DNA from: Dysidea avara | Taxonomy: Eukaryota | Length of the DNA stretch: 64,000 bases | Direction of reading: 5' to 3' | Assembly: GCF_963678975.1 (NCBI RefSeq) | Contig: NC_089285.1 | Coordinates: 12,151,725 to 12,215,724, forward strand | Shown here: in pieces, positions 2,481-56,064 of the stretch | Position numbering within the stretch: position 1 is the first letter of the stretch | How the letters are laid out: each line of letters opens with the position of its first letter | The notes under the pieces: model-generated | Told to the model about the DNA's origin: nothing | The model's input: the letters and a program-made list of their open reading frames with translations, nothing else | The model's database searches: none | Position numbers and translations under genes: made by a program

Positions 2481-7826
<5,346 letters not shown>

Positions 7827-16700: not shown

Positions 16701-19338
16701 TTTTCACCTGTTATGTGAGACATGGATAGTTGGCATTTGCTTCCCCAGTATAACACCAGGTACCCATTGATGTTACAGCTAGGTGGGCCACTTCACCAGG
16801 TCACCAGGTCTCCACTAAGCAGCTGGGTAGACTGGAGCAAAGTGGGTGAAGTTTCTTGCTCAAGGAAACAACAATAGCAACTGGACATCAAACCTGGAAC
16901 CTTTTGAATACCAGGCCAATAGTCTAGCCTCTTGGTTTATATGCTGCCTCAAACACACACAGAGACACAAAACACACAGATACACACAGATACACACAAT
17001 GTACACACCTGGGAGCTATTAGCATTATGGCCATCACTTGCCCAGTACCAAAAGAACTGCTGATCTAATCTCACCTTCACCTCAGACAACTTATTAATAA
17101 CTTGTGCCAGATGGCCACTACTGCCATTGATCATCACTTCATACATCTGAAGGGTAAGTACTCTACATACACATCATCACAATCACCATGTCACAATATT
17201 ACCGTATTCTGGACTACTGTATCACTAGTAATAGGCGTGGGCTCTGAGAACACACATTGAACAGTAGAGCTTGTGTCTACAATAATATAATCTTAGTAAT
17301 GGGACAAATAAGTTAACATTACTCACCGCTAGGCCTCACAAAGTATGTATTGTACCCCAGTGGTGGAACAGTAGCAATGAACACTACTGTGTACTGAGCT
17401 TTACCACGATCACCTCTGACATGCATTGTTGATTTAGGAACAGGCAGCACCTGGTATATAGGAGTGTTAATGTGTGTCTTATATGAATTAGTGTCTTACT
17501 TGACAAGTAATATTCTTTGTAGAGTCCTGGACAGTCACGTTAGGGCTGGATATGGGTACCCTCACAACAACCTTATCATCTGTGTATCCCCTGGGATTGT
17601 ACACTATGATATCAAACTAAACATGTTATGTGCTAATATTGCTATCTCTGAAGTACACAGCACACCTGTTCATTGCTATCTGTACTAGCTGGGCACACAC
17701 TGACATTAAGATATTCGCAAGTCTCTAGTGATAGAGTTGATGATCCATTGTACCTCTTAATCATATCACTGATAGTTTGGGAGATAACACCCTAAAGATT
17801 GTGATGGTATAATGATGAGTGTCGTACATTGTTACTCACCTCACACTCCACTTGGCCAATGTGTAGTCTCTTAGCATAGTCATTAGCAACATGTTGCTTT
17901 TCTGTGCCACTGTGTGGTATATGTACAACATATACTAGTGGTTATAGCATATACATGCCAAAACGCTGAGCCAATTAAGTTAGACTGATTAATGTATTAA
18001 GGTTTTGAAGCTGTAGTGAGAGATGAAAGGATTTATCATCAGAAAAAAAGTAAATGCAAAATAATACAAAGTATAACACTACAATCACTAAAATTTAGCA
18101 AGTTAGAGAGAAAAATTGGGCTGTCTTAAAGGCAAGGGCACTACTGAATTACACAGCATACATACACATACATAAAATTTGTAGTAATGACAATACCTCA
18201 CTGCATCATGGTGCTGAGCCACTGCCATTGCTTTAGCTATATAATAAAAGTATAAGTGATTAGATGTATGTCAGGCAATAGGCTATAGCCACTGAAACAC
18301 TAAACAACATTTGTACAACATACAACAGTACAACAAGGATAGGCCTCCTCTACTAACCTAGCCTATCACATGATGGATTGTTGTCATAGAAACCTCCATG
18401 CATAGCCTCTATCTGCTTACCAACCTGTAGACGAATAATACAAAATGATTATACACAGACAGTCTATATAATAAACTGTACACCCCTGTACAATATATTC
18501 CTTGTAGAATTCTCCATATATACTGTATGTAGAATTACCTGTAACAGAGCATTGTTATACCGGACATATCCCTTGAGGGCAGGTCTACTGGTGAAGTATC
18601 CAGTCCAGTATGACCAGGGTGCTGATCCATAGGGGAAGAAGTCATCTAACTTCACTGACCATGTTAGGTTGGCCTTGTATACGGCATCAATGTATCGTGA
18701 TGGTGTAGAGTAGAACACATTAACTGAGTCATTCTGTAGAGATCATGTCATTCTGTTAACAAGCGTCTGATATTCACAATTCCCTAATATGTGTGGTTTC
18801 ACAAAAGAGTTAGTGTACAGTGTAGTTCATACTCATGTGCACTACATATGCAACAATCAAATTCCAAGTCTTTGCTGAGTATCAACAGACAACACATAAA
18901 CAGCAAACAAGGGGGTTCACTGAAACAAATAACAGCAAATTTAGCTCACCAAACCTCATATCACATACACAAAATTTTACATAACAATTAAGGATTTGGT
19001 AACTATGTAATATGATACAATAAGTGATATCTTATATACATACACAACATACAGTGTGTATACCTTATTAACATGGTGTATCAACTTGTCAAGGTTCTTA
19101 AACCACATGTTGGCATTTTCATACTGGAAGTCTGACCCCATTGTTAACATGATATTGTTGGTACGATAATACTGTGCCTGTATCAGTGATGACAATAGTA
19201 GCATGTTGTATAAGTGTCGTTGTCCTACCTGATCTAAACACACTTTGATAAAGTCATTAACCCTTTCTTCAACGTTATAATCAAACAAATCTTTGTCATC
19301 CTACACAAAAAGAGGCATGGTACACAGTAATATCGTAT

Positions 19339-19418
<80 letters not shown>

Positions 19419-21392
19419 CCTGTATTGGTGGGTCAGAACATTTCTGATCAAAACAAAACCCATCTGGTGGGGTATAATGGTGGTAGAGTACTCCAGTGAA
19501 GATTTGTGTGTCCTCATTAAGACTAGAGCTACCTCTCCATACCATTTCCATTGTCTTCTTGTCCAGACGAGTGTTTTTGTCACCATAATCAAGTCGCGCA
19601 AAAAACAGTCCATCAAATCCCATCTTGGTATAAACCAACAATATTAAAACAAACACAATAACTAATACAAGTTACCATAGCAAACAGAGAGGCCTGCTCT
19701 GATGAATGTCCAAACGTATCTATCTGCCATGCAACACGAGGACGATATTGAGCTCCAAATGTGTCAGTAATAAACCTCAATCCTGTCTCAATCTTGTCAT
19801 AACAAGACAACCATGCCAATTATACCTTCAGTCATTTGATCAATTATGGCATTGTAGTGAGTGGCTCCTTCATCATTCATACACCATCCACCATTAGTGA
19901 ACTCCAACTGACCATTCTCAACCAACTGCTTCACCTAGTAGCATGTACAACATCAACAAGAAACGTAACGTTACTAATAAAAACATATTCAGGGATGGAA
20001 TTGAAATGTATGTTCAAGTACATGTATACAGATGGGACTATGAACAAGTGTCCTGATTATCAAGGTGCCCTAAGTTACATTACACTAACACAGATAGGTG
20101 GTCTTGTTATAGTGAGGTTTCACTATGTCAAGTGGTAATTAACTCACCAGGGATTTAGTATCGTTGTTTTGCTCTTTCCACCATCTTGTAAAGAAAGCCA
20201 TTTCAACATAAATGAAAGTTCGTTCAGTATTCTTGGTAAGCTCCTTGACCACAGTATCTAGTATATACTGGACACCAGCATCTTGTATGGTGTTGTTGGC
20301 TGTAGAGAGAAAAACAAGACAAGGACTAATTTTAACGTCCCACGTGTGTTGTCTACCACACTACACAGTGGTTTGGTCCAACAGTGGGGGAGAATACTGT
20401 ATATCATCCAGTGGATGGCTTCAATGGTCAATAGTTTTAGGTTGCAGTCCATAACATTGTGTTCATATAACAAACATCAACAAGATGATATGATGGTATG
20501 TTGTACCATAGGTACCTAATAGATGTCTCATACCAGTTTGTCAGTGCCCACCCATTTGTATAGGGTCTGGAGTCAGTGTCACATGTCATGACGTCACAAT
20601 AATGGTAACAAGAATGGCAAGTCCGACAACCATACAAAGTAAAGTAAGTAGTATATTTACAAACGGCTACTAACATATTCAAATTCCATCTTTAGTTCTT
20701 TTAAACAGCCTTGGTCATATCACATCTTCACAAAACTTTGCGACAAACTCTTGACACATTAAGTAATTCTATGGTATCTATGGTAACTCTAACACAACCG
20801 TCACAAAAATTTTGTAATTACCAACAACGCAATCTGATTGGTGTTACTTGTTTCCTGTAACACACTACAAATCTTGAATGCTAGAGTGACCAGACCTTAT
20901 GCAAAGGGGCAAGCACTAGTCTTGAGCCCCGTATATAGATATGTGGTTGCCAGACTACGTTTTTTCTGTGTTGGGCAAAAAAACGGTCTGGCTACACAAG
21001 ACTAGTTGTACCACACACTGTGTTGTACAATGATTACTACCTGTGGTTGTACTACACCACACTACACACGTATTGCAAGTGTGCTGCATTGATACAACTT
21101 GAGATGGTCTAGCTATTTATCCAGTAAGACCAGAGATCCTGCAAGGCATGCCACTACATATTTACTGGGAAGCTAGCACCATAAACTATAATACAAAGTG
21201 TGCAGCTGCTGTACAAATTAGTTGTTGCCACACCCATGAATTACCTCCATAGTAATATTGGTCCACAGTCTTTAACCACCCCACATCGTCATGAGTGTGA
21301 GGGATTAAGTGTACGTTCAGCCTCTCACACTGGACCAAGGAGAACAACCCTAACACCAAACACACTCGAGATAACACCATAGCGACCTTCAA
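13742..21392 (-). CDS. MAN2B1: lysosomal alpha-mannosidase (GH38), about 20 exons
   Basis: First exon at 21186-21392 encodes a signal peptide ([22 protein letters not shown]) and [25 protein letters not shown]. Further matches include [35 protein letters not shown] (about 19613-19760), [16 protein letters not shown]... (about 19420-19656), [36 protein letters not shown] (about 18980-19190), [50 protein letters not shown] (about 18500-18718) and [23 protein letters not shown] (about 15060-15349). The terminal exon lies at about 13742-13858 (acceptor ttgttgcag; ...[22 protein letters not shown] stop) and matches the human C-terminus ITLEPMEIRTFLASVQW. Confidence 0.85.
19343..19414. repeat. (CA)n on plus strand, (GT)n on the transcribed minus strand, about 36 units, starting 8 nt inside a MAN2B1 intron directly after the 5' splice site CAG|GTTTTTGTGTG
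   Basis: Read directly. The preceding exon ends ...[10 protein letters not shown]. Confidence 0.9.
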
Positions 21393-21613
21393 CCCAAAAA
21401 TCCCCAGTCGTACGGTGAGCGCCTGTGCGTTAACCTAAATTTTAAGTTTAATTTCTCACGCGACACATGTTGTCACATTAGATAATAGACACCCCCACAT
21501 CTATATGCTCTAACAAGGATGATTATGATTATACAGATAGAAAATGGTACAGAGTGCAATATAAATTAAGTGGATGAATTGCAGTTATGAGATATGATAA
21601 TGTATACATGATA

Positions 21614-29932
<8,319 letters not shown>

Positions 29933-30429: not shown

Positions 30430-33400
30430 TGTTAGGATTTTCCTTTATTTAGAACATTTTTTTGATGCAATTAATTATTAAGTTTTTTTGTAATTACATA
30501 GCTACATCACGTGATTGTATTATTCCGTTGTTAATAATGGTGAGAACGTTGTCACCTTGATCAGCTATTTGCTCGAACAACTCATGACATCTATCGCCCA
30601 ACATGGGGCACGAGAGAAGGACCAAAGTAGCTGGGGAATGTTGCTGATCAAGGCCTGTTGAAGTGACGCATGTACCAGATCGACTGATCCAGGACCTCCA
30701 GCTAGCTAGTGTTGTATTTTTTTGCTGCCAAACCTTCAGGACAGCCTTTGCTCTGCCTTTTCATAGAAAGAGAGTCACCCTGTTATTCCTGATCATTTTA
30801 CTGTATGTCTAAACCACTTGAGGCTCCTTCACCTGCATTTAGTGAACAATCCTGAGCTTTTACAAGAGCATGACAGCATACTGAAGGGCAGATAAAACAA
30901 GGTGTAATCGAAATTGTTCCAGAATCTAACACTCCTGTGGCTACAACCGTCCACACCATGGCGTCCTACATCAAGATAAACAAACTACAAAGCTGCCAAT
31001 CATTTATGATGACTCTGCCAAGACAAGAACCAACTCTGCTTCCCTCAATGGTTGTCACAAGGTAGGTCTAAACTTGATCCCAAACTCTTTGATGTTTTGA
31101 TTAGGTTTCGTTGGCATTTGAAGCAGATATTGAAAAAGCCTTTCTAATGATTTCTATTTCTCCTGAAGACAGAGATGTGATGTGACTGTTGTGGCTAAAG
31201 GACCCTGCTAATGATGCCAGTGAAATACTGGGGTTGAGATTCACTCGCTTAGTTTTTGGACTCAGGCCATCACCAGCAATTTTGGGATCAGTGATATCGC
31301 AACATTTAGACAAATACCAATCTCAACATGTCGATGATTTAGGTCTAGGTTGAGAATAATTCTAGTTCACCACAGCTGGAACCACAAGTCTCCTCTAACT
31401 CTAAATTTGTTGTAATTGATAGCACTGGCCAATCCTAACTCTTGGGGATTGTTTGGGACAGCAACCTTGACACATTCACTTTCAGCCCGTCAGAGTTGGT
31501 GGAACAAGCTATCAAACTCCCTGCCAGTCAGAGGTCACTACAGCGAGTCACTGCCAGTATATTCAATCCCTTGGGAATACTCAGCCCCTTTGTAATCAAA
31601 TTGAAGATGCTTTTTCAATTTATGTGTTGTGAAGGTTTAGAAATGGGACCAGCCATTAGAAGGGGAATGCTGAAAACATTGGAATGTACTGATTGCAGAA
31701 TTGAAAACTCTCAACGAAGTTTAATTACCAAGATGTTACTTCAAGATAGATGTATGCCAGATATCTAGTGAACTTCACGGATTCAGTGACGCATCAGAAG
31801 ATGTTTATGCTGCAATTCTATATTTACGTACTGTTTATGATGATGGAAGTGTATCTGTTTGCTTAGTTACCTCCAAAACAGGAGTGTCTCCTGTTAAGAA
31901 ACAAACCATTCCCCGCCTTGAACTACTAGAGCCCTGATATTGAGTCATCTTGCAGACAGTCATGAAACAATTTCCAGTGAAGCTCCCTACCACTTACTGG
32001 GTGGAATCTACTGCCACTTTGTGTTGGATTAAGAGCAACCGTCCTTGGAAGCAGTATGTATCCAGGCGGATGAATGAAATCTGATCACTGTCTGCAGGTT
32101 TTCAGTGGAAATATTGTCCTGGAACAGCCAATCCAGCAGATTTTCCCTCATGTGGATGCAAGTGAATTAGTGAATTGTGCTACTTGTTGGGAAGGACCTT
32201 CGTTTTTGAGATTAAACCAGGATGAGTGGCCTACTCTTCATGATCCACCATTTGATGATGTGATGAATTCAGAGTTATCGAAGACTCCAAAACATCAGCT
32301 GTTAGTGATGTCTTCTCACCGTCGAGTTATGCATGGGGGAGTCAATGTAACCCTTACAGCAGTGCGTGAAAAATATTGGATATTGAGAGGAAAACAAGTT
32401 GTTAAGGCAACAATACGTTTCAGTGTTGTTTGTAAGAAGCAAGAAGGTCCAGCTTATAGCACTGAGCCATCACCTGACCTCCCTGATTTTCGAGTATCTG
32501 ATGATCCCCCTTTGCCCACACCGGTCTGGATTTTGCTGATCCATTATATGTCAGAAGTGGAAAGGGTGCAGCCAAGTTAAGTAAAATGTATGTGTGTCTT
32601 TTTACTTGTGCGTCTACTCATGCAGTACACCTTGAGTTGCCTTGGCAATGAATGTAGACAATTTTTTGTTGGCGTTTAGACCATTTGTTGGCAGCCTTGG
32701 TCTTCCAATAACTCTGACATCAGACAATGCAAAGACGTTTAGATGTTCCTGAAAGGAAATACAGATGATATGTTGATCCTCAGAAGTCCAGCAATATTTG
32801 ACCAATCAGAGAATCACATGGAAATTCATTGTTGCTAGAGCTCCATAGTGGGGAGGCTTTTGGGAGCACGTGGTGCAGACAGTTAAGCGCTCCTTGAGGA
32901 AAGCTATTGGTCGGGCTACCTTGCAGTTTGATGAGTTAAACACCTTACTTATAGAAGTTGAATCAACAGTCAATTGTCGGCCATTAACATTTGTGTATGA
33001 TGATACTGAGGGAGTAAGCTACCCACTGACTCCATCACACTTAATCAATGGTTGTCATTTGACGTCTTCTCCCAGTTCCAGTCATTTTGAAATCATCAGC
33101 ACAAACAAATCACTTACTAGGAGGGCCAAGAACCAACGTCACATTTTTGAAGCACTGGAAAAGAGACTATCTATTGAGTTTGCGTGAACATCGTAAAGTC
33201 AAGCTGAAGAGGACTGGGCCTACAATTAAGGTTGGAGATGTGGTCATTGTGAAGGATGACAATGTGAAACAATTATTTTGGAAATTGACCATGATAGTAG
33301 AATTACTGAAGGGCAAGGATGGAATCACCAGAGCTACTCTCATTAATGTGTCTTGTGGAAATGGACCCCCCAAGATTCTGAGAAGAAGCACAAGTCACTT

Positions 33401-33726
33401 AATTCCAATTGAAGTCAAAGTTAGTCAATGTCAGCCCCTGAGTCTGAGTCAAGGAATGATGAAGTAGAGCCAATCCAAATTCATCCTCATAGACATGCAG
33501 CAGTTTTGGGAGGCTATTTGAAGAGTTTGGACTGAACGTTTAGTGTCATATTGTAGTGTTTGCTCCCCTTGTGATCAAACAAGGGAGAGTGTTAGGATTT
33601 TCCTTTATTTGAAACATTTTTTGATGTAATTATTAGGTTTTTTGTACGTGATTGTATTGTTCTGTTGTTAATAATGGCGAGAACATTGTCACCTTGATTA
33701 GCTTTTCGCTTGAACAATTCATGACA
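30430..33726 (+). mobile_element. BEL/Pao-family LTR retrotransposon, internally deleted (no gag or protease), with pol pseudo-ORFs broken by frameshifts and stops; 5' LTR at 30430-30590, 3' LTR at 33590-33726, TSD ACATG
   Basis: Both LTRs begin TGTTAGGATTTTCCTTTATTT and end ...CATGACA. Flanking ACATG sits at 30425-30429 and 33727-33731. Internal plus-strand translations: reverse transcriptase (AFEADIEKAFLMISISPEDRDVM.LLWL...RFTRLVFGLRPSPAILG), the BEL-type RNase H region (LGIVWDSNLDTFTF..., SSELHGFSDASEDVYAAILYLRTVYDDGSVSVCLVTSKTGVSPVKKQTIPRLEL) and integrase (HGGVNVTLTAVREKYWILRGKQVVK...; YVCLFTCASTHAVHLEL; SDNAKTF; C-terminal ...GDVVIVKDDNVKQLFWKLTMIVELLKGKDGITRATLI). Confidence 0.8.
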
Positions 33727-34301
33727 ACATGGTAAGGGATACTTTGGGACCATTACCAAGTGTCCAGATTATGGAGTTGTCAAATGTCCTGATTAACAGG
33801 TTTCACTGTATTCAGCTCACATGAAATATATTAACTAGTTGTGCAATTTATTGAGTGCACAAGGGCTTGTCACAACTCCCTGACAGGGCAGTGAGCTAGC
33901 TAAACCAATTAGTTTTCATGTAATGAATGTATGTTCCAGCCTTATATGTAAGTTTTCCATATTGCATAGTAACATCTGTAACACAATGTATTTATTTATT
34001 TATTAATGCTTTACAGATCAAATAACACAAGTACAGAACATTATCAACTGGCTAGTGTGTGGTTAGCTCAGCCTCTCTGCTTGGTTAGTAAGGTACCACA
34101 TATCTATGTACTTGATTAGTGACCCCAGTAAAATTAACAACAGTCAAGGGCACAGTTCAAAATGTGTGACAGTAGTTGCAAATTTGTGTCTCTCTACCCT
34201 CCCTAGATTTGTTATAAAATAACTCCCTTGTAACCAAAATTATGTACAATGCAATACTGAATCTGATATTACTGTACATTAATAAGACAAAGTGTGCTTA
34301 C

Positions 34302-34362
34302 TTGGAAAGTAGACTGATAAAGGTAAAGCCTGAGGTTCTTCTTCTTCTTCCCAGTCACTCAT
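34302..34362 (-). CDS. DDX43: candidate first coding exon of the DDX43-like gene (MSDWEEEEEPQALPLSVYFP, then donor GTAAGC)
   Basis: The exon is 61 nt (20 codons plus 1 nt). This gives exactly the phase-1 junction needed by the acceptor tgtatacag|GT at 29893: the shared codon is A+GT = Ser. The exon lies head-to-head with SIRT4, 163 bp away. It would place the BEL/Pao element inside intron 1. I see no alternative ATG-containing exon between 29934 and 30429. Confidence 0.4.
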
Positions 34363-34467
34363 TGCGTGTACACACCGTTTCCTTCACTGTTCACAATCTA
34401 AATCACTGAATTATGATTCGAACTGTGCTGCATGTGTTCACACTCGTTGGCGCGGTACTTTTTTATT

Positions 34468-34502
34468 TAACGCGCGCAATTGTATTAACTTTGCGCGTTA
34501 AA
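34468..34502. promoter_or_regulatory. palindromic element TTAACGCGCGCAA-N10-TTGCGCGTTAA in the 163-bp interval between the divergent DDX43 exon 1 candidate and the SIRT4 start
   Basis: Inverted repeat with 11-13 bp arms read directly. It is the only CG-rich motif in an AT-rich interval and sits 24 bp upstream of the SIRT4 ATG. Confidence 0.35.
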
Positions 34503-34525
34503 TTAGGATAGCGCTTACATCCGGC

Positions 34526-35428
34526 ATGGCAACTTTGACATCCAACCTCGCATCCAGCTTTAAGTACGTGCCTAAACACAAAGAAATTAGTGAGAAGGAA
34601 ATAAGGAGATTGAAAGAGTTTATTGCAAAATCTTCTAGACTATTCGTATTGACAGGGGCCGGCGTGTCAACCGAATCTGGCATAAAGGACTACCGGTCAC
34701 AAGGGGTAGGCCTGTACCACACATCTCAACACAGACCAATGCAGCACAGTGAGTTCATTAAGAGTGAAGCTGCTCGCCAGCGATACTGGGCCAGGAATGC
34801 TGTTGGGTGGCCCATCTTCAGAGAATTTCAACCCAACATAATCCACAGTTACTTAGCAACCCTTGAGAACCAAGGAACATTACATTGGCTGGCCACTCAG
34901 AACGTAGACAACTTACACTACAAGGCTGGCTCTAGGAAAGTCACTGAACTACATGGTACAGTGTATGCTGTTGTATGCTTGAACTGTCATGCTGTCATCT
35001 CGAGGGATGCTATGCAGGAGAAGATCAGTGCTAGTAACCAGGGATGGACAGCAGCAATGTTGGAGGAAGCACCAGATGCTGATGTGGTCATTTCTGAAGA
35101 TGCTGTTAAAAGTTTTGTAACTCCTTCCTGTGATAATTGTGGTGGTATTCTTAAACCAAATGTAGTGTTCTTTGGAGGTTCAGTCAATAAGAGAATCGTG
35201 GACCTGATCAATAGTCAGATTAGTGTAGCAGATGCTTTAATTGTATTAGGGACTTCAGTGCAAACCTACTCAGCTTTGAGACATGTGAAATATGCCAACA
35301 TGATGAGCATACCTATTGGGATTGTAAATATTGGACCAACTCGTGTAGACAGCCTTGCTAACTTCAAGATATCTAGTCGTTGTGGTTATGTGTTTGGAAA
35401 GATTCTCAGCCCTGGAGCTTGTGTTTGA
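34526..35428 (+). CDS. SIRT4: NAD-dependent protein deacylase sirtuin-4, single uninterrupted 300-codon ORF (intronless)
   Basis: The translation matches human SIRT4 throughout: LFVLTGAGVSTESGIKDYRS, QRYWARNAVGWP, LATQNVDNLHYKAGSRKVTELHG, Zn-binding cysteines CLNC...CDNCGG, KPNVVFFGGSV, VNIGPTRVD...KISSRCG. Confidence 0.9.
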   Translation: MATLTSNLASSFKYVPKHKEISEKEIRRLKEFIAKSSRLFVLTGAGVSTESGIKDYRSQGVGLYHTSQHRPMQHSEFIKSEAARQRYWARNAVGWPIFREFQPNIIHSYLATLENQGTLHWLATQNVDNLHYKAGSRKVTELHGTVYAVVCLNCHAVISRDAMQEKISASNQGWTAAMLEEAPDADVVISEDAVKSFVTPSCDNCGGILKPNVVFFGGSVNKRIVDLINSQISVADALIVLGTSVQTYSALRHVKYANMMSIPIGIVNIGPTRVDSLANFKISSRCGYVFGKILSPGACV

Positions 35429-35560
35429 AAGGTGGTGATTGTACCATCAAGGCGAGGTATATAGTACTTCTATATTAATCACGTGCCTTTGTAATTACCA
35501 AAAGGTCATTATATATATATATATATATTTTTATATAAGCTTTCAGACGAGGCGTATTAA

Positions 35561-38500
35561 TTGATGGAGGCCACCAGTTTAGATCTCGATTTCATCTTCA
35601 CTAAAGCCGCTGAAGTAATAAAACAACACTTGGCGAAAAACAGTACACGAGATGCGTCGGTCGTGAAGTTCGTGTCTCCAACAGAATTATTGAACGCACT
35701 GGATTTCGCGTTACCTGATGAAGGCCAGTCGCCTGAACAAATACTGGATTATGTCAAGAAAGTAATGGAATTCTCCATACAAGCAGGTCAGTATTTATCG
35801 TAAGGCAAAAGCCTGGATGCACACCGGGCGATTTCTCCGAGATTATAAATTACAGCCCAGGTCTAAACCACCAAAGTTTAATACCACGAAAATTTTTAAC
35901 CACTTCATGCTACTGCCATAGGCCACACAGACATGTGCACCTCGAGGGGGTGGCACACAGACATTCATTGTAGGTAGATCTGCAAAGTCTAAGTCACAAG
36001 TCAAGGTCACCAAAATTCGTCCCAAAGTCAACAATCATGGGTAAAAATTAAATCTCCAACACAATCAAAAGGTAATGAAAAAAATTATCACTATGTCACC
36101 AGTCAAAGGTTCTTATATTTCAGTGAGTCAAGACTTTGAATGCAGTCACAGATCTACCTACAGTGTGTACCTATGTGACACCCCTTGCACCTTAAGCTAG
36201 AGCTGGGCAGTAGAGTAACTAACCTAAAATCGGATGGGCTTCAAAAATCGGATGCAATTACTCGAGCTACAACAGGAATTTTTGAACAACTCATATGTCT
36301 TTAGATAGTTCAAGGCTGTGGGACTTTGGGCACCGAGTATCAGCTTTCTCGGCTTCTTTGTCTGGTGGCAGCAGTCCTGCAAAGTCATTTCCGACTAATA
36401 CGTATAATCGGAAAAAGCAGTCGATTCACGGACACTCACCGTCTACATATCAGACTTGCATTCAATCAACAGTTTTCTACCTTAAAGTAGTAGAGTAACT
36501 CATCTGCTTTCTAAATATCCCTGGTTTATTAAATTAAATCCTTGTAATCACGAATTACAAATCAAATAAAATGAGACGTCACTGGAGTAATAATTGCACT
36601 ATGAATTTAAATATACGGAAGTAAACAGTGTTTGTAATAGTATATGGTGAACATTTCCCATATACATATCTCATACTTAATCAAGTTTTCGTATACTTAA
36701 ATTTATGGTGCGATTATTACTCCAGTGACGTCTCATTTTATTTGATTTGTAATTCGTGATTAAAATGATTTGATTAAATAAACCAGAGATATTTAGAAAG
36801 CAGATGAGTTACTCTACTACTTTAAGGTAGAAAACTGTTGATTGAATGCAAGTCTGATATGTAGAAGGTGAGTGTCCGTGAATCGACTGCTTTTCCCGAT
36901 TATACGTATTAGTCGGAAATGACTTTGCAGGACTGCTGCCACCAGACAAAGAAGCCGAGAAAGCTGATACTTGGTGCCCAAAGTCCCACAGCCTTGAACT
37001 ATCTAAAGACATATGAGTTGTTCGAAAATTCCTGTTGTAGCTCGAGTAATTGCGTCTGATTTTGGAGCCCGTCAAATATTAAGTGAGTTCCTCTATGAGA
37101 TTTGTCAAAAGCCAGTATTGTATTTTGGAAAATATCACGGTATAAATTATACCACAATATGGATTGTAGTTTTTTGAATTAATGAATAAAATAAGCTTTC
37201 TCTGGAAAGTGTGCTTTAATGCAATTAGAAGGTTCTCTTTCACATTGGTAAAGTCATGACAATTAATTTTATGTTTTATGGATGCAACTGGTCAATGTTT
37301 TGGCAAAATTAGCAAGTGGGGAAGGAGTTCCATCACTTTATTTTGGAAGGACTTTAGCTTTTGCACCTGTCAAAATTAAGATACTCTAATAGAGCAGTCA
37401 TATAAACTCTAACAAAACAGTCAGTTGCAGCTGAATGATATTTACTTTTCGGCTTGCCGGGTTTGACTAACTGTAGATATAAGGGTAATCTGTAACTAGT
37501 CAATCTGGTGATAGAATAACTCCTTACTGTGGGTTTTGGAAAATTACTAGATTCAAAAACATGGAGTAAAACATAGAGTACTTCTAGAGGGCAAACAATC
37601 CATGAAACATGATTAATTTGGTATGGCCTAAAGGCAGGAAATAACGGGATGATGTTATGAACCAGCTATTGTCTAACTCTAGATGGTATGATGGTATTTT
37701 CTAAACTCATCCAGTACAGTAATGGTATCATTAAAATACCTTCTCCTATGATACGTACCAGTATATCACCCAACTCTACCTTAAGCTTAAAAGGTCGTAT
37801 CTAGTCTCATACCCAGGCCATTTTTTTTTTCTTTTGTGTGGGGGAGGGGAATCTTTTCCTCTCCCTCACACAAAAGGAAAAATAAGTGGTCTAGGCATGA
37901 GACTATGCCACATAGAGATTACAGTTGCTATGCATATTGAAATTAGCCATTGGAATTGCGAACCTAATAAAATTTACTGATTTTAGCGGAATTCTGCATA
38001 TCTACTGACATGATAAGTTCAAAAACGTACGAGAAACCCACCAAACATTGGCTTAGGAAACATGGTGTCTGTTTATATATGCCTACAGAAACTAGAACAA
38101 AGCTATTCTAAACTAAGTTACTCATGCAATACTTTCTCGAAGCGGCTTTCCTTAACTTTTGTCTTTAAACTAAATGGCCCACTAGAGGGTAACAACTCTT
38201 CATACGATTCCCTCGAATTACGATTCCCTTTACGATTACGATTACGATTCCCCCGAATTACGATTCCCTCGAATTACGATTCCCGATTCCCTCTTCATAC
38301 GATTCCCTTGTGTATTATTCATATACACAATGTTCCAGACCGTTTTTTTTGTTTAGACTAATTAGTTTAAGGTGAATTCCCATAGTCTTGGTAACGGGTG
38401 AATCCGACAATACATTATGCATTGGGCAAAATGACGAACCGGGTTCAGAAACAGTGCTGGGCCCACGTATCCGCTGCAGCTACAGTCTTGAAAATAAGGT

Positions 38501-41500
38501 GGAGTATTCCTTAGAGGTATGTGCGTAATTAACAGACCGTTTTTTTGTTGTTGGTATCAGTACGTAATGTTGTGGGTGCTTCGAAAATGCACGAAAATCA
38601 CTGTGTTTTACGTACTGTTGGGGGCGTGTCCCTTTCAATATTAATGTATTGATTATTAACCAAATAAATTCAATATGGATCAGATTACAGTGGCTATGAT
38701 CCCATCATCTTTTTTCATTACAGAAGACCATACCTTTTTGTAAAGTTGTTGCTCTGGTCTTGTTACCAAGAAAAATTGGTAGCTAGTAGGTACATTTATA
38801 ACATACTAAAGATTAAAGATTTAGCATCAAAATATATTTGCTAGGATTTGTCACTACTCACTAGTATATTCTTTCTAAGTGGTACAGTATATGCTTATGA
38901 AAGCCTTGAATTTTAGCTTGATGAGATCAAATTAGACCAACTGACTGTTCTATTAGAGTATCGCAATCATTTGAAATGTCACGTGATCTTAATTTTAAAA
39001 TATCTGTGCAAAATTAGTCAGTCAGGTCCAAGCAGCAACTATTCAAGTACTTACTTATTATACAGCAAACTGGCTTCTGCCACTAGCTACATAGTTACAT
39101 GGGATAATATATGATGGTATATATCACTGCAGGTCATCCACGTTATTTTAACCAGTTGTACTCTGGCCTGGATGAGACTGGGATAATAGCACAGATGGTC
39201 AGTGCAGCTACCAACACTAGTGTGTGAGTTATTATGTTACAAGTAATTCTCTGTGCTAGCCCTATAGCACATGACCATGAAAGTATACAGTATGCATCAA
39301 GGCATCCTCAACTACTCTAATAGAGCACACACTTTACATATTTTGAATAGTACTAGTCATTCTCATAATTATATTGGGATTGAGCAAGCCCATATTAAGT
39401 GATTGATAAATGATTGCTGTGGGGTATATCAAACTAATAGATATACACCATCAGTGATGATTAAGTAACTCTACACAATAGTGCCATAAGCATATGTGAC
39501 CATCTCAATAAAGCCCATAGTGTGCACCAAATAAAATACAAGGGGTGATATTTTGCATGCTATTATTGCACTGTTAATTATTGAAGCAAGTCTCTGATCT
39601 ACCTGTATATACCATCTTGTTCACCTTTCATGAAGAGTTGGTATTGTTCCTGTATACTGTTAAGGGAAACCTTGGTGGAGCTAAACTTTGGCGAATAGCC
39701 AGTTAAATAACATTTAGCGAAATAAACTTTGGCAAATTCAAGCTCAATGTTTAGCTATAAAGATGCTAATGTGAGGCACTACAATTAATTGGTGGGTTAA
39801 AACATTGGTGAATTTGTAGCAAATTGCCAAATTGACCAAAGTCTTTCCCTGCAAAGTTTCCTTCTATACCGTATAACCTGGGTATGCATGATATGAGCAT
39901 TCATTTGTAATGCTAAACATTGTTACTTTTTACTTGCAACAAAAAACTATTTAGTTACATATTACCTGGAGCTTATAAGCACCGAAGGCAGCACTTGTGA
40001 GCTCCTGATATTACTCATAAAATATTACATATTACACACTACTTTATAAGCTGTCACGTGCGCTACTGCCACTTTATTACGTGACATAATTGGACAATGC
40101 ATAAATCTTGTATTCAAGAGAGAGTAACAGGTCAGTAAGCTTCACTCATTAATTTGAGGTGGGCTTTGTCATTGCTTCATTGTAGCTAGGCATTACTCAG
40201 ATTAGTAATGAGATTATAGGACAAAAAATGAAACATTTATATGGGTGTAATTCAAATCAACTTCTTTGCTTCCCCTACTGTATAGCATGTTATAGTTCCA
40301 AAATTACTGGGATGAGACTACCTAGATACTAAGTCAATAAAATGAAACACAGGTTTGTTGAGATGGTCACGTATATCATAGCTAAATATTGCTGACTCTC
40401 CATGCAGTAAACTGCCTAGTAGTGCACTACATATCGACTACTGTTGTGAACATTATTGACCAATGCCAATTTTGCAGGTACACATATGAAATAGCTCCTG
40501 TCTATACTACTATAGAGAGAATTGTAATAGAGAAGATGTGCTCTCTGGTAGGATATAGTGAAACTGATGGAATATTCAGTCCTGGTAATTTTAAATGGGA
40601 TGCTTTTGTGATGGGAAAATTTGGCTTACTAATTTCAGTGTACTTTTTTTATAAAGAAATTTTTTGAAAAGTTATCATTAATTTTGAGTAGCATTGGTAG
40701 GGTGATTTGCTAAATTTTTCATCACTAAAGTTAGTACTAATATGTGCTTATGTTGTGTTTGTATGAATGTATTCACTTCTAACTTGTATATGTTCTATGC
40801 TGTCATTACTGTACCATTAGTTGAGGGTTATTTTTGCTTGTAGGAGGATCCATTTCTAATCTTTATGGTTTAATGTGTGCAAGACACCAGTGAGTCATAA
40901 TGGTGATAGTTACCAGTTTGATATATTGTTCGATGTCTGTAGTCGTTTTCCTGAAGTGAAGAAGACGGGGGTCCATTCTCTACCTCAGCTAGTGATATTT
41001 GCTTCTGAACAAGTATGTTATTTAGTGTCATGTCAGAACTTTCTGGTGGTGAAGTGTAGTTTGTTAACCTCATAACAAAGTACCATACCCAGTGTTGGGA
41101 CAGTTACTTTTTAAAAGTAACTAGTTACATATTACATATTACTTGCAACTGAACTATTTAGTTACAGTTACATATTACCCATAAAATAAAGTAACTATAA
41201 TAATATTACATATTATATTTCTTTGTGTCCACAGCCTTAAGCTGTCGCGTGTGAAACTACCACCTTATCACGTAACATGATTGCATTGTTGTGCAAATCT
41301 TGGTTATAAGTAAGAAGCTGGTGAATAAGCTTCATTCAGTAGGCTTCATTACTTTGTTGTGACTAGGCGTTACTCAGTGGATCACTAACGAGATTAGTAA
41401 CTTTGTTACTTGTAGTAATAATATTACGTAATATTAGATTCGTTACAGTAACTATATTACTTAGGTAACTCGTTACATTTGTGAGTAAAGTAACTTGAGT

Positions 41501-43246
41501 TATATTACCATTTTACAGTTAATTTAATTACTCCTGGGTCCTGACCACCTAATACAACCTTACCATATAAATCATGAGTTGAGGTATAGTCAGTGTTGGG
41601 AGTAACGCATTACTTATGTAATGCGTTACGTAATATTATTACTTTTGTGGTAACTAAGTAATATAACAAAATACGCTATGTGTCTTGTGATGGAACAAAA
41701 TACAAAACAAAGCCCACACAATTATAGTGAAAAATCAGACCTGCTGGCATGGGGCTTTGAGACTGGTTTCCCAGTCATGGATGAATACGTACTGTGTACT
41801 TTTTCTCTGGCCAGGCTCATTATTCAGCACAGAAATGTGCAATGATCATGGGAATTGGAATGGATAATGCAGTTACCATCAAATGTGACTCAAGGTATTG
41901 ATATGGTATAGTAACTACGTACTGTCATATGGTTGTTGTTGAAGGGGTAAGATGATTGTTAGCGAGTTGGAGAAAGCTGTGACAAGTGTTAAGAAGGAAG
42001 GGAAGTGTCCTCTAGCTGTGATAGCTACTGCAGGGACCACAGTTATGGGAGCATTTGACCCCCTCACTGAAATTGCTGCTGTGTGTAAAAAGCATAAAAT
42101 GTGGATGCACATTGATGTGAGTATTTTCGTATGACAATTTCTTGTAGCACAGAATCCAAGTTTCTAAATTTTGCCTATCTGATCACTATCTGGTGCTCAT
42201 ATTAGCCAAAGCATTTTGCAAGTACTATTTTTAAAACACTCTAATAGAGCAGTCACTTTGTCATTTGGTTGACTAATAATTAGATGCCTGCATGTAGCCA
42301 GCTATTGATTGTAACAGTACCTATTTTATAGGGTGGATTTTGCATTATATATTAGCATGTTTTGTGTTGTATGTTGTAGGCAGCTCTGGGAGGGTCTGTG
42401 CTTGTATCTGAAAAACACAAGTGTCTTTTAAAAGGAGCAGAATTGTAAGTACATTTACATCAACGACATACTACTCTGCATATCACACACATAAAAGTTC
42501 AGTTTGTTTACGTGCACTTTACTGTATAAATGGTCCTCTTACCACTGTAGATCTGATTCACTGGCTTGGAATCCTCATAAAGCTTTAACAGTACCACTGC
42601 AGTGTTCAGGGTTCATTACTAAACATAAGGGACTACTAGCACAGTGTAACTCTGCACATGCTAACTACTTGTTCCAGCAAGACAAGCGCAGTTATGATGT
42701 GTCTTACGATACTGGTGACAAGTCCATCCAGTGTGGACGACTAAATGATGCCTTCAAAATCTGGCTCATGTGGAAGGCTAAGGTATGCCATGGTAGTTTA
42801 GCTGTTCACTATTATGGTCCATTACAGGGCAAGGTTGGGCTGGCGAGGCAAATAGACAAGGCAATAGGCAACACAAAATATATGGCTGAACAAATCAAGA
42901 AGAGAGATGGATTTGAACTAGTATCTGAACCAGAGTACACTAACTGCTGTTTCTGGTACTATCCACCATCCATGAGGGGGCCTACACCTCCTGACCCTCA
43001 CAAACTCACCAAGGTAGTGACATATACTACTGCTAGTCTTATTAACACACGTACCTGTTGATGTAGGTTGCTCCAATAATCAAGGACCTTATGGTAAAGT
43101 CAGGCAAAATGATGATCACCTATACCCCACTGGGTGACAAGCCTAACTTTTTCCGTATGGTCACTATCTCACCATTATCCACTGAAAGAGATATGGATTT
43201 TGTGCTTGATGAGATTGACCGCCTTGGTCGTGACCTTGCGTTTTAG
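35561..43246 (+). CDS. PLP-dependent glutamate / cysteine-sulfinate decarboxylase-like gene (GAD/CSAD/GADL1 family), 11 exons
   Basis: Plus-strand exons:
- 35561-35794: MMEATSLD...ELLNALDFALPDEGQSPEQILDYVKKVMEFSIQAG
- 39130-39226: HPRYFNQLYSGLDETGIIAQMVSAATNTS
- 40478-40586: YTYEIAPVYTTIERIVIEKMCSLVGYSETDGIFSPG
- 40838-40888: GGSISNLYGLMCARHQ
- 40920-41024: FPEVKKTGVHSLPQLVIFASEQ
- 41795-41890: HYSAQKCAMIMGIGMDNAVTIKCDS
- 41943-42118: GKMIVSELEKAV...ATAGTTVMGAFDPLTEIAAVCKKHKMWMHID
- 42373-42444: AALGGSVLVSEKHKCLLKGAE
- 42551-42782: SDSLAWNPHKALTVPLQCSGF...YDTGDKSIQCGRLNDAFKIWLMWKAK
- 42828-43013
- 43067-43246: VAPIIKDLMVKSGKMMITYTPLGDKPNFFRMVTISPLSTERDMDFVLDEIDRLGRDLAF stop
The match to vertebrate CSAD/GAD is collinear and includes the PLP-lysine region NPHK. 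Confidence 0.85.
36225..37075. repeat. large near-perfect inverted repeat (arms about 380 bp at 36225-36605 and 36690-37075, loop about 85 bp) inside the 4.6-kb first intron of the GAD-like gene
   Basis: The ORF track shows the same 67-88 aa peptide (MSLDSSRLWDFGH(R/Q)VSAFSASLSGGSSPAKSFPTNTYNR(K/E)KQSIHGHSPSTYQTCIQSTVFYLKVVE) on both strands (36295-36498 plus, 36809-37075 minus). Direct reading confirms reverse-complement arms with only a few mismatches. Confidence 0.9.
38195..38300. repeat. minisatellite built from TACGATTCCC(TCGAAT) units
   Basis: cgattccctcgaattacgattccctttacgattacgattacgattcccccgaattacgattccctcgaattacgattcccgattccc read directly. Confidence 0.8.
39651..39885. mobile_element. 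MITE family C, second copy (reverse orientation) in GAD intron 1
   Basis: GGAAACCTTGGTGGAGCTAAACTTTGGCGAATAGCCAG...CCAAAGTCTTTCCCTGCAAAGTTTCCTTCTATACCGTAT is homologous to 27998-28195. Confidence 0.6.
39900..40230. mobile_element. MITE family B, partial or diverged copy in the GAD intron
   Basis: Shares ...TTACTTGCAACAAAAAACTATTTAGTTACATATTACC...ATATTACATATTACACACTACTTTATAAGCTGTCACGTG...TAGGCATTACTCAGATTAGTAATGAGATTA with 22955-23470. Confidence 0.5.
41086..41680. mobile_element. MITE family B, full copy (41086-41610) plus an abutting inverted terminal fragment (41590-41680) in a GAD intron
   Basis: CCCAGTGTTGGGACAGTTACTTTTTAAAAGTAACTAGTTACATATTACATATTACTTGCAACTGAACTATTTAGTTACAGTTACATATTACCC... 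is about 90% identical to 22955-23470. It is followed by CAGTGTTGGGAGTAACGCATTACTTATGTAATGCGTTACG, which is the reverse complement of the family's 3' end. Confidence 0.7.
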
Positions 43247-48752: not shown

Positions 48753-49655
48753 CTAGTCTCCAATGCCCAATTTTAGACTAGTCTTCATTCTTTTATCACA
48801 TTGAATCTTGTGATTTACTTTGTGCCTTACTTTGTGCCTTCTGTATACACTCGGCAGCACACACACTTGCCCATGATAGTACTTTAACAAGTTCCTTTCT
48901 GTAACCAGTGCATTTGTTGGGATCTGTAGCAACAAAGCTGCCTCAATTTGTTGTCTGCAATCCATTCCAAACAAGAGAAATGAAGGCTTCTCAAGTGTTG
49001 CATCATGTGGGGTATTCCGCCCAGAGAACTCCATAGAGATATCTGTCCCAATGTAGTCCATAGGTGGCTGCCTGCTTTCTTAACATAGTCTTCAGATCAC
49101 GATTAAACCTCTCTGTGAGTCCATTGCATTGAGGATGGTAGGCTGTAATATTCAACATTTCAGTTCCCAGTATAGACTGCACACATCTTTCATTAGGTGT
49201 AACAATAGGTTGGTACCTCTGTGTGATAATAATGCTTCTGGCACACCAAACAAAAGTATAATATACTCTTCCACCAGTATTCTCACAATACATGTGGTTT
49301 TTTGATCTGGCATGGGGTATACCATTGTCAAGAAGTCCTTGGAGTACCAACACATGTTTATTACCTCTCTCTGTCTTTGGAAGATCCATAGTATCAATCC
49401 CCACTATCTGGAAAGGCCTCTGGACAGGTATTGGTTGCAAGGGAGGTATACCTCACCAGAGGAGAAGTACGTTGAGGGCAGGTCTTGCAGTGTATGGCAA
49501 CATCTGCATACATGCCATCCCACCACCAACAAGTTGTACAATCGATTGCTAGAAAAATGTCTAGCAAGGGGGCCACCGTGAACACTCAGGATTAGCTTTT
49601 CCTTAAGGTCATAATAAGGTGAGTTGGAACCACTGCTCATCTTCTTGACATGCAC
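48753..49655 (-). mobile_element. Ty3/Gypsy-type integrase remnant (HHCC zinc finger plus rve core) with frameshifts; LTR-like repeats at 47693-48330 and 49986-50100
   Basis: Minus-strand pieces: HGGPLARHFSSNRLYNLL...W..M...V..Y...C..C (49404-49655); PFQIVGIDTMDLPKTERGNKHVLV (49003-49440); FGVPEALLSHRGTNL (49152-49397); AYHPQCNGLTERFNRDLKTML and PSFLLFGMDCRQ (48753-49061). ATTGCAATATGATTGGTTACAATTAT occurs at both 47693 and 49986. TTAGTTAACGGAGACTCCG (48145) has a counterpart TTAGTTAACGTAGACTCCG (50030). Confidence 0.6.
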
Positions 49656-53699: not shown

Positions 53700-56064
53700 T
53701 TATTTAAAATTATTCAATGAAGAATTTCCTACAATATCACTTGTAAGATTGTTCCAGTCATTAATTACTCTAGTACTAAAATAGTTGACCCGACATGAAT
53801 GGTGAGCAGGGGGCTTAAGTAATTTATATGCATGACCTCTAGTTTGTGTATTGCGGGAAAGAGTGAAAAAGTTGGATTGAAGTAACCATTCAACATCTTG
53901 AAAAGAAATGTTAAGTCACCACATCTGTGCCTGTACAAAAGAGATGGTAAATTCATTGATGTCAGTCGATCTATGTAAGACTTGTCTCTTAAAGATGGTA
54001 CTAGTTTTGTAGCATGCCGTTGCATACCCTCAAGTTTACGTTGGTCCAATACATAATGGGGTCCTCAAATTACATTTCCATATTCTAATATTGGTCAAAC
54101 CATTGATTTGTAGAATCGTGACAGTACAAATTCATTCAAATTGATAAAGCTTCTTTTCATACAAGCCAATACCCTGTTCGCTTTCATAGCTACTTCAGAA
54201 GCGTGTTGGTGGAACTTTAAATTCGCATCAAATATAATACCCAAGTCCTTATGACAATTAACTGAGTCCAATGAGACACCATTAAGATAGTAGCCTCCAA
54301 AGCTGTGTGTGGCTTGACCAAAGTGAATCACTTTACATTTAGTAGCATTGAACTTCTGTTGCCACGCATCACACCATTTGGCTAGATTATCTAAATCAGT
54401 TTGGAGTTGTACATGGTCTGCCAATGTAGAAATGGTTCGTATAAGCTTGGTATCGTCTGCAAATAAAAACACATGACTTGAGATGGATTTCGGCATATCA
54501 TTAACATAAATAAGGAAGAGAAGAGGTCCTAGAATTGATCCTTGTGGAACGCCACTCTTCACATCTTGCCAACATGATTTTTTCCCCATTTAATACAACG
54601 CACTGTCTCCTATTGGATAGAAATCCATCAATCCATCTAAGAAGGTTGCCTGTAATTCCATAGTGTTCAATCTTATACAATAAACGTTTGTGTGGCATGC
54701 TATCAAAAGCTTTCTGCAGATCCATGTAAATAACATCAACAGGTACTCCTCGATCAAGTGATTTTGTTAAAATATCCATAACATGAAGTAACTGGGTAGT
54801 GCACGAATGGCCCTCTAATAAGCCAAACTGGTGGGATGTCAACAAGTTATTGGAGTTTAGATGTTCTATTATATTAGTTTTAATAATGAAATCCATAACC
54901 TTAACTACTGTAGATGTAAGACTGACAGGTCTACCATCGATTGGCCTGACATCATGGAGCCTATGAATACTCAAGAAGCATGGGGATTTTTCAAGACAGT
55001 ATTTCAAGATATTATTGATAAATTTGTACCACTAACAACGGGAGTAAGGAAGAAAAGAAATATTTACATGTCTCCTGAGGCATTCAGAATGAAGAAATTA
55101 AAGCGGAAATTGTGGAAAAATTATACCTTGTCCAAAGCTGACCATGACTACACAGCTTTTAAGGAAGCTAGAAATAAGTTTCGATGTCTAACAAGAAATT
55201 TAAAGATTAATCACGAACAACATCTAGTCTCTAACATTGGAAGAAGCCCTAAAAGTTTTTGGCATTATGTAAACTCAAATATGAAAACAAGATCTGGTAT
55301 TGATAGTATCCAACGTCCTGATGGTTCTGCAGCTACTTCTGATCCAGAGAAGGCTGAATTATTAAATTCATATTTCGCAAGTGTTTTCACTAATGAAAAT
55401 TTAACCAATTTTCCAGCCCTAGATCCAGAAGCTTCAGTACCAAAGTTGGAAAACATAACAATAACTGCTTCATTAGTATTTGATGAATTGAATAGGCTAA
55501 AAACAGATAAATCTCCAGGTCCAGAGGGTTGGCCTCCACGTATATTCAAATAATTTTCTGACCAACTATCAGTTCCACTGTCCGTTTTATTTAATAAGTC
55601 TTTCCAGTCTGGTGTTCTGCCATCGGAATGGAAAATTGCTTTTGTTACCCCTATTCATAAGAAAGGAAGTAAACCATCTTACATGTAATTATATGAAATG
55701 CTGCACGCATATTGTCAAAGTCAGCTCTGTTGACATTGTATCTAGGGGTGTGGTTTGGTTTGATGGTAGAATAGCAAGATAGGTGAAAACGAATGCATAC
55801 ATGATCACTATTTCCCAAGCCTGGAAGATAATCAATGTGATTGATCATATCAGCTTCATTTGTAAACACGAGGTCAAGCAAACTGGGAGTAGTGCCTGGT
55901 CTAAAACGAGTTGGTTCTTGAATGTGCTGGAATAAAAAAAGATCTTGAATAGTGTCTATGAAGGATTCAACATGAGTATTCCTTGGGTTCACTGACATGT
56001 TAGACCAAACAATATCTTTCATATTAAAATCCCCACATATCAATAAATGAGTAAAATCATTCAA
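53700..56064 (-). mobile_element. CR1/L2-like non-LTR retrotransposon (APE endonuclease, reverse transcriptase, C-terminal domain), 5' truncated, frameshifted and internally rearranged
   Basis: Minus strand: endonuclease C-terminus at 55651-56064 (LICGDFNMKDIVW...HIQEPTRFRPGTTPSLLDLVFTN...PGLGNSDHVCIRF); reverse transcriptase at 54095-55007 (RPVSLTSTVVKVMDFII...GLLEGHSCTTQLL...YMDLQKAFDSMPHKRL...; ...GVPQGSILGPLLFLIYVNDMP...FLFADDTKLI...); C-terminal domain at 53765-54049 (QRHATKLVPSLRDKSYIDRLTSMNLPSLLYRHRCGDLTFLFKM). The plus strand at 54945-55680 encodes the EN-RT linker and RT start of the same family (DWPDIMEPMNTQEAWGFF...DKSPGPEGWPPRIFK...LSVLFNKSFQSGVLPSEWKIAFVTPIHKKGSK), inverted relative to its flanks. 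Confidence 0.85.

Follow-up and report, generated by a model that had tools for sequence, protein, structure and literature searches.

A compact junction of a DDX43-like gene, an intronless SIRT4 and a GAD-like gene in the demosponge Dysidea avara

We analysed a stretch of 64,000 nt from the keratose demosponge Dysidea avara (assembly GCF_963678975.1, NC_089285.1:12,151,725-12,215,724, forward strand), hereafter the window, and focused on a junction of three genes. The first coding exon of a DDX43-like helicase gene lies on the minus strand and is separated by 163 bp from the sirtuin gene SIRT4 on the plus strand, and 135 nt after SIRT4 comes the ATG of a decarboxylase gene of the GAD/CSAD/GADL1 type (the GAD-like gene below), also on the plus strand. 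The locus is an ordinary, well conserved instance of the gene packing known from demosponges, and we consider it likely that the three genes are independent RNA polymerase II units, which partly overlap and leave almost no intergenic DNA between them. The features of the junction are the following:

34302 to 34362, minus strand: first coding exon of the DDX43-like gene, 61 nt, MSDWEEEEEPQALPLSVYFP, with the donor CCAA|GTAAGC and the minus-strand ATG at 34362-34360.
34363 to 34525, no strand: spacer between the start codons of the DDX43-like gene and SIRT4, 163 bp, CpG-rich, presumed bidirectional promoter.
34465 to 34503, no strand: inverted TTTAACGCGC motif pair, with arms at 34465-34475 and 34493-34503 and a 17-nt AT-rich core, TGTATTAAC.
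34511 to 34518, plus strand: GCGCTTAC block, 8 nt before the SIRT4 ATG, its end overlapping an initiator-like TTACATC (34515-34521).
34526 to 35428, plus strand: SIRT4, class II sirtuin, 300 amino acids (aa), a single open reading frame (ORF) with no intron, TGA at 35426-35428.
35429 to 35563, plus strand: gap between SIRT4 and the GAD-like gene, 135 nt, probably the SIRT4 3' untranslated region (UTR) plus a minimal GAD promoter with a short leader.
35509 to 35539, plus strand: (TA)n run ending in TATATAAG, AT-rich and TATA-like, its sequence not conserved.
35540 to 35556, plus strand: CTTTCAG|ACGAGGCGTA, an acceptor-like or initiator-like TTCAGA followed by the conserved GACGAGGCGTA block.
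35564 to 35788, plus strand: first coding exon of the GAD/CSAD/GADL1-like gene, 75 aa, the remaining gene extending to a stop at 43246.
35617 to 35622, plus strand: first AATAAA on the 3' side of SIRT4, 189 nt past the stop and within exon 1 of the GAD-like gene, a candidate polyadenylation (poly(A)) signal of SIRT4.

A first-pass annotation of the same DNA had recognised the three genes and their geometry, and this holds: the 163-bp spacer between the divergent starts is exact, SIRT4 is one uninterrupted ORF both in the sequence and in the ORF list, and its neighbours are multi-exon genes, with at least 14 coding blocks in the DDX43-like gene and about 11 in the GAD-like gene. Two of its values had to be corrected. 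The GAD ATG had been placed at 35561, where the codon is TTG; the true ATG is at 35564, behind an in-frame TAA (35558-35560), and the gap is 135 nt instead of the 133 bp given before. For the comparison with relatives we used the contigs L002-L012 from sponge metagenomes, mostly from one Dysideidae-focused project, L005 and L006 being Logan contigs.

The SIRT4 ORF gave a Pfam SIR2 match with an E value of 7e-50 and its product is 100% identical to the NCBI entry 'NAD-dependent protein lipoamidase sirtuin-4, mitochondrial-like [Dysidea avara]', equally of 300 aa; an identical stretch is also present on an ENA assembly contig. The translation carries the GAGVSTESGI NAD-binding motif, the catalytic His and the CxxC...CxxC zinc site. 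Animal SIRT4s likewise have the SIR2 domain with the NAD-binding, His and zinc motifs, at about 55% identity to the D. avara protein, and matches named SIRT4 were found in D. avara and Amphimedon. The SIR2 motifs and the closest similarity, which is to animal SIRT4, thus point to SIRT4 among the class II sirtuins. A metagenome scan with SIRT4 returned only sirtuin homologues of about 40-47% identity, taken to be bacterial class II sirtuins, and no sponge loci. Horizontal transfer of SIRT4 was considered and rejected, the closest matches being animal SIRT4s.

Compared with animal SIRT4, the D. avara gene differs in being single-exon and in its N-terminus. In D. avara 12 uncharged residues precede KYVP (34526-34565; P0001-P0012), the number is 0-12 in all the keratose orthologues examined, and the reading frame of the D. 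avara gene is closed by a TAA 27 nt before its ATG. By inspection, made without a targeting predictor, no recognisable mitochondrial presequence was found in SIRT4 of D. avara or its keratose relatives; distant homologues among the matches have presequence-like N-termini of 15-30 residues. Either the targeting of keratose SIRT4 would differ or the protein would not be mitochondrial. At the other end of the gene, the D. avara stop is derived, since the next ~30 nt (GTACCATCAAGG, within 35426-35462) align to the coding C-terminus (...YTVPSR) of L002 and L008, and it is because they still code there that these nucleotides are conserved.

The DDX43-like gene runs on the minus strand from 34362 down to 21614. 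Its exon 1 ends in phase 1 and joins exon 2 in frame (near 29621-29905, acceptor near 29905), the latter being the exon with the RGG/KH start and conserved in L004. The peptide of exon 1 is 95-100% conserved, with the donor intact, in L002, L003, L004 and L008. Pfam matches to KH_1 and DEAD, both weak, were obtained on the downstream minus-strand exon ORFs, and a tblastn search with human DDX43 matched 27627-21668 with residues 217-634. A KH domain followed by a DEAD-box core is thus predicted, which is the order of a DDX43-type helicase.

Regarding the GAD-like gene, the 75-aa exon 1 is followed by about ten more exons on the plus strand. Exon 1 aligns with the N-termini (residues 1-91) of the sponge homologues P0128, P0131 and P0133 and is 84-88% identical in the Dysideidae contigs. 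Pyridoxal_deC Pfam matches lie on later exon ORFs, the NPHK lysine motif is in the ORF 42504-43061, and the nearest named relatives of the product are GADL1, CSAD and GAD, at about 50% identity. These features indicate a Group II decarboxylase dependent on pyridoxal phosphate.

The order DDX43 exon 1, SIRT4, GAD exon 1 is colinear with window 34290-35795 in L002/L003, L008 and L004/L010/L011, which stand for at least three related sponges, and across Dysideidae the head-to-head spacers measure 126-163 bp and the tandem gaps 118-163 nt. SIRT4 is a single ORF in seven related sponge contigs, and many more distant homologues are full-length ORFs on their contigs. In L005, L006 and L007 SIRT4 is 70-73% identical and again a single ORF, with different neighbours. 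Since these three keep the single ORF but have other neighbours, the three-gene adjacency is a feature of the family Dysideidae, and the intronless SIRT4 is an old state common to keratose sponges rather than a local peculiarity. The neighbours found there are a COX4-like gene in L007 (9659-10001), whose first exon lies head-to-head with SIRT4 with 84 bp between the start codons, and a PARP-domain ORF upstream of SIRT4 in L005. The COX4-like start has a AAGATGGCG (YY1/Kozak-like) context, and SIRT4 here has another gene of mitochondrial function as its partner.

Measured between the start codons, the divergent genes are 163 bp apart in D. avara and 126-155 bp apart in the relatives, within the <1 kb that defines a bidirectional pair. 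As a neutral yardstick for the spacer we took the four-fold degenerate sites of SIRT4. Spacer identity to the relatives was 0.72-0.80 over aligned columns, the corresponding values being 0.59-0.77 for the four-fold sites and 0.46-0.55 for an intron flank of 200 nt; for L002 the spacer and four-fold values were 0.80 and 0.77, and for L004 0.72 and 0.59. This constraint, together with a CpG-island-like composition, argues for a shared promoter.

Within the spacer, ATTTAACGCGC (34465-34475) and GCGCGTTAAAT (34493-34503) are perfect inverted-repeat arms of 11 nt, 100% complementary, with 17 nt between them. The palindrome of the first-pass annotation is therefore present, its 13/11-nt arms being an imperfect extension of the perfect ones. 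When the spacer was shuffled 5000 times with its dinucleotides preserved, 0.28% of the shuffles had an arm of at least 11 nt (P = 0.0028). L002 and L008 retain both arms and their distance of 17 nt; in L004 the arms carry differences that do not compensate each other. Because of these changes a hairpin was rejected, and the inverted TTTAACGCGC pair probably represents two protein-binding sites. Elsewhere in the window TTAACGCGC has no exact match other than the two arms, and its one-mismatch count is not above chance.

Closer to SIRT4, the GCGCTTAC block is invariant in L002, L004 and L008, and a similar GCGCTTAA stands ~13-14 nt before the SIRT4 ATG in L006 and L007. GCGCTYAC has two copies in the window against a chance mean of 0.5, one at SIRT4 and the other, GCGCTCAC, 33 nt ahead of the start codon of an alpha-mannosidase-like gene. 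A composite promoter pattern TTAAANTTAGG...GCGCTYAC for SIRT4 and the mannosidase-like gene was also tried and discarded, there being no exact match and only GCGCTYAC in common. The ~40-bp footprinted core of the putative bidirectional promoter is a candidate for reporter assays.

The CpG observed/expected ratio is 0.35 in the window and 1.74 in the spacer between the DDX43-like gene and SIRT4 (13 CpGs), 0.1-0.3 along the SIRT4 body (overall 0.31), 1.32 in the gap, 1.12 in GAD exon 1 (12 CpGs) and 0-0.47 in every later GAD exon. The profile has two peaks, at 34300-34700 and 35500-35900, with the depleted SIRT4 body between them, and the two-peak pattern recurs in L002 and L004/L010. Furthermore, at least two more CpG peaks of the window are at gene 5' ends, namely at 21321 (the mannosidase-like gene, near 21380) and at 11621 (a NIF3-like gene, near 11962). 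The two peaks of the junction suggest that the promoter regions are distinct, one being shared bidirectionally by the DDX43-like gene and SIRT4 and the other, a minimal one, serving the GAD-like gene. The passage of PMC8286816 that cites de Mendoza et al. 2019 describes the Amphimedon genome as hypermethylated, with unmethylated CpG-rich regions that overlap transcription start sites (TSSs), Amphimedon being the only demosponge whose methylome is published. For this reason we read the second peak, by its composition, as a probable separate unmethylated promoter at the GAD 5' end; peaks of the CpG ratio can thus mark separate promoters even 135 nt past an upstream stop.

The gap itself contains no AATAAA, as had been noted before, and ATTAAA is likewise absent; a set of 16 poly(A) hexamer variants had no match there or in the L004 gap. 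Because the first AWTAAA past the stop is the AATAAA at 35617, inside GAD exon 1, SIRT4 mRNAs most likely either are terminated within the gap at a non-canonical signal or run through the GAD promoter into the first exon and use this AATAAA. If they use it, the SIRT4 3' UTR would overlap the promoter and the 5' end of the GAD-like gene; this junction is a likely instance of such an overlap between a 3' UTR and the promoter of the gene that follows. L002 (+172) and L008 (+217) have the AATAAA at the matching position, where L004 has TATAAA; since these bases encode E-V-I-K, their conservation adds no independent support.

Upstream of the GAD ATG, the two elements reported by the first-pass annotation are where it had seen them, TATATAAG at 35532-35539 and CTTTCAG|ACGAGGCG at 35540-35554 (AG at 35545-35546). 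TATATAAG is the 3' edge of a (TA)n run that is specific to D. avara; its counterparts are TATAAAT in L008 and CATAAAT in L002, ~24 nt before the aligned A, and ATTATATTATT in L004. The identity of the gap to the relatives is 0.47-0.57, about that of the intron flank (0.46-0.55), with two conserved islands, AAAAGGTCA at 35500-35508 and GACGAGGCGTA at 35546-35556. A G-box (CACGTG) at 35480-35485 was examined and set aside, being present in D. avara and not conserved in the relatives. In L008 (1655-1687) a 32-nt palindromic insertion, CATAGATACTATAGAGTATCTATG, separates the conserved GAGGCGAGGTGTA block from the GAD ATG, so that the spacing between this block and the ATG is flexible.

If the three genes are independent units, the DDX43-like gene and SIRT4 would be transcribed divergently from one 163-bp CpG-rich and probably unmethylated bidirectional promoter, whose core would be the conserved ~40-bp block formed by the two inverted TTTAACGCGC sites around their AT-rich centre. 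The leaders probably measure no more than roughly 10-20 nt, such short leaders being normal in Amphimedon, where the start-codon motif peaks ~10 bp past the TSS (PMC4773876). SIRT4 is an old single-exon gene of keratose sponges. The GAD-like gene would be served by a separate minimal promoter within the final ~40-70 nt of the gap, composed of a TATA-like, AT-rich stretch, a TCAGA that resembles an initiator, and the conserved GACGAGGCGTA block; from there an unmethylated CpG-retaining patch would reach through GAD exon 1. The introns hold most of the sequence and the transposons, intergenic DNA being nearly nil. The TSS positions and the 3'-end site of SIRT4 are placed here from the sequence, and the methylation status is read from CpG depletion. 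Of the explanations proposed before, the 'very short TATA-driven promoter' in the gap comes closest to this evidence, although its TATA element is not the conserved part. In these terms the junction is a conserved example of demosponge intergenic DNA held to 100-250 bp while the introns swell with transposons; outside annotation its importance is small.

L009 has ~40 nt of homology upstream of the GAD ATG and then unrelated GC/CpG-rich sequence instead of SIRT4, which is weak evidence that the GAD-like gene needs no SIRT4 upstream. Nevertheless, several points weigh against three independent units, and one of them is that this homology lies at a contig end that could be chimeric. TATATAAG is not conserved and its first T is only 32 nt from the GAD ATG, so that a TSS ~30 nt downstream leaves almost no leader; TATA-like positions further 5' in the (TA)n run would place the start near 35541-35558. 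Outside the islands the gap changes about as fast as an intron, which leaves the proposed promoter as a minimal and ill-defined element. Coding constraint could account for part of the CpG retention in GAD exon 1. The public-run assemblies gave no contig derived from RNA, either for D. avara or for a close relative, the D. avara SIRT4 protein being present on genome contigs only; neither L005 nor L006 carries a poly(A) tail or a leader, and both appear to be genomic. Finally, queries with exon 1 and with a 387-aa composite found no D. avara GAD-like protein in the protein collection, which does contain the SIRT4 protein of this species; the best match was 54% identical. The GAD-like gene looks intact, and the reference annotation may lack a model of it or model it differently.

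The GAD mRNA might also start further upstream, at the shared promoter or inside or before SIRT4, with a non-coding 5' exon cis-spliced to CAG|ACG at 35546/35547, and SIRT4 would then lie within GAD intron 1. We regard this as unlikely, though it has points in its favour: a T-rich stretch is followed by an AG 17 nt ahead of the ATG, any upstream exon would be non-coding because of the in-frame TAA at 35558, which agrees with this explanation, and the gap has no strong conserved promoter motif. The AG is kept in four of the five lineages, as CAG in the window and L009 and as GAG in L002 and L008, but in the last two it stands in TTTGAG with a weak pyrimidine tract, and L004/L010/L012 read GTC at the aligned position. 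The CpG-retaining patch at the GAD 5' end itself, in three lineages, and the proximal ~40 nt that L009 keeps despite its non-SIRT4 upstream sequence also argue against an upstream exon. Even less credible is that the intronless SIRT4 is a recent processed retrocopy inserted between two intron-rich genes, to which we give hardly any probability. A single exon flanked by genes with at least 11 exons would fit; however, no poly(A) tract or flanking duplication follows the ORF (no search for a parent copy was made), the single-ORF state is widespread in keratose sponges and found beside other neighbours, as described above, this is the copy annotated as SIRT4 in D. avara, and the gene appears to have its own conserved CpG-rich promoter.

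The first-pass annotation had also raised an operon-like SIRT4-GAD unit, for which we found no support and which seems to us very improbable. It would be a bicistronic precursor from the shared bidirectional promoter, conserved in Dysideidae and resolved either through spliced-leader (SL) trans-splicing onto CAG|ACG or through some other cleavage within the gap. If this were true, a demosponge would for the first time show an operon-like unit, and polycistronic transcription would extend to these animals. The two genes are on the same strand, 135 nt apart here and 118-163 nt apart in Dysideidae, which passes the <250 bp used for chaetognath operons (PMC12460157), with an acceptor-like site ahead of the GAD ATG and no AATAAA between them. 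The missing poly(A) signal also counts against an operon: in known operons, those of C. elegans, the upstream gene has a normal poly(A) signal not far ahead of the acceptor. One Dysideidae lineage (L004/L010/L012) has no AG at the acceptor, the adjacency is absent in L005-L007 and apparently broken in L009, and the CpG peak at the GAD 5' end, seen also in L002 and L004/L010, suggests that the downstream gene has a promoter. No SL RNA or other Rfam family was found in the whole window or in 34000-36000 searched separately, the one weak match (RMST_5, E 0.21) being a chance one. In the literature examined, moreover, hexactinellids are the only sponges with reported SL trans-splicing, at a low level (~4% of long cDNA reads in Aphrocallistes), and operons have not been reported there (PMC7986045, PMC10282587). 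What the junction shares with the SL-resolved operons of nematodes, tunicates and chaetognaths is a pair of same-strand genes ~100-150 nt apart and an AG site just before the downstream start; the D. avara acceptor is not kept in every lineage, no poly(A) signal precedes it, the downstream gene has a promoter-like CpG patch, and the literature examined reports no spliced leader for demosponges (PMC7986045, PMC10282587). The junction shows no sign of an operon and has the usual compact demosponge layout.

The nearest known parallel is provided by the bidirectional CpG-rich promoters of Amphimedon queenslandica, a demosponge with a compact genome in which small intergenic regions are numerous, many sites of start and termination overlap, and about a third of the genes have bidirectional promoters (Fernandez-Valverde & Degnan 2016, PMC4773876). 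As in those promoters, the divergent starts of D. avara are far less than 1 kb apart, there is a local CpG excess in a CpG-depleted genome, the leaders would be very short, and the tandem start and termination regions nearly or actually overlap. TATA at about -30 is present in 26% of the Amphimedon promoters (PMC4773876). Amphimedon belongs to another sponge order, however, and the D. avara junction is known from sequence; its main conserved element is the inverted TTTAACGCGC pair, whereas Sp1/GC-box, NRF-1 and G-box are reported for Amphimedon.

The rarity that the first-pass annotation implied for such tight spacing does not hold, because this spacing is documented as typical for Amphimedon (PMC4773876) and the same window has a second tandem junction. 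The latter is on the minus strand, where the DDX43-like stop (21614-21616) is followed by 231 nt (21383-21613) and then by the alpha-mannosidase-like ATG at 21382. ATTAAA is found 162 nt past that stop, and the mannosidase-like product has a signal peptide.

The first introns of the two multi-exon genes differ in length from their counterparts in L004. Intron 1 of the DDX43-like gene is ~4.4 kb and contains retroelement remnants (integrase-like ORFs, Pfam DUF5641) at 32074-33467 on the plus strand, the orthologous intron of L004 being only ~1 kb. Intron 1 of the GAD-like gene is ~3.3 kb in D. avara (35789-39128) against 51 nt, in frame, in L004 (3293-3343) and L010 (6226-6276), and because it is so short and in frame, a prokaryote-style caller reads exons 1 and 2 of these contigs as one 122-aa ORF. 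The D. avara intron holds a 380-nt inverted repeat (36241-36620 and 36687-37066, 96% complementary, 66-nt spacer), which causes mirrored ORFs on the two strands and looks like a foldback element or one resembling a miniature inverted-repeat transposable element.

Microsatellites of the (GT)n/(CA)n type lie at exon ends or a few bases from them, at ~29534-29620, 27560-27700, 19296-19400 and 4100-4207. The donor of DDX43-like exon 2 passes straight into (TG)n, and the L004 orthologue is without a run at that donor. Downstream of the GAD-like gene, the window also contains an integrase-like ORF (49003-49440) and, separately, reverse transcriptase and endonuclease ORFs of the long interspersed nuclear element type (54095-56064), all on the minus strand.

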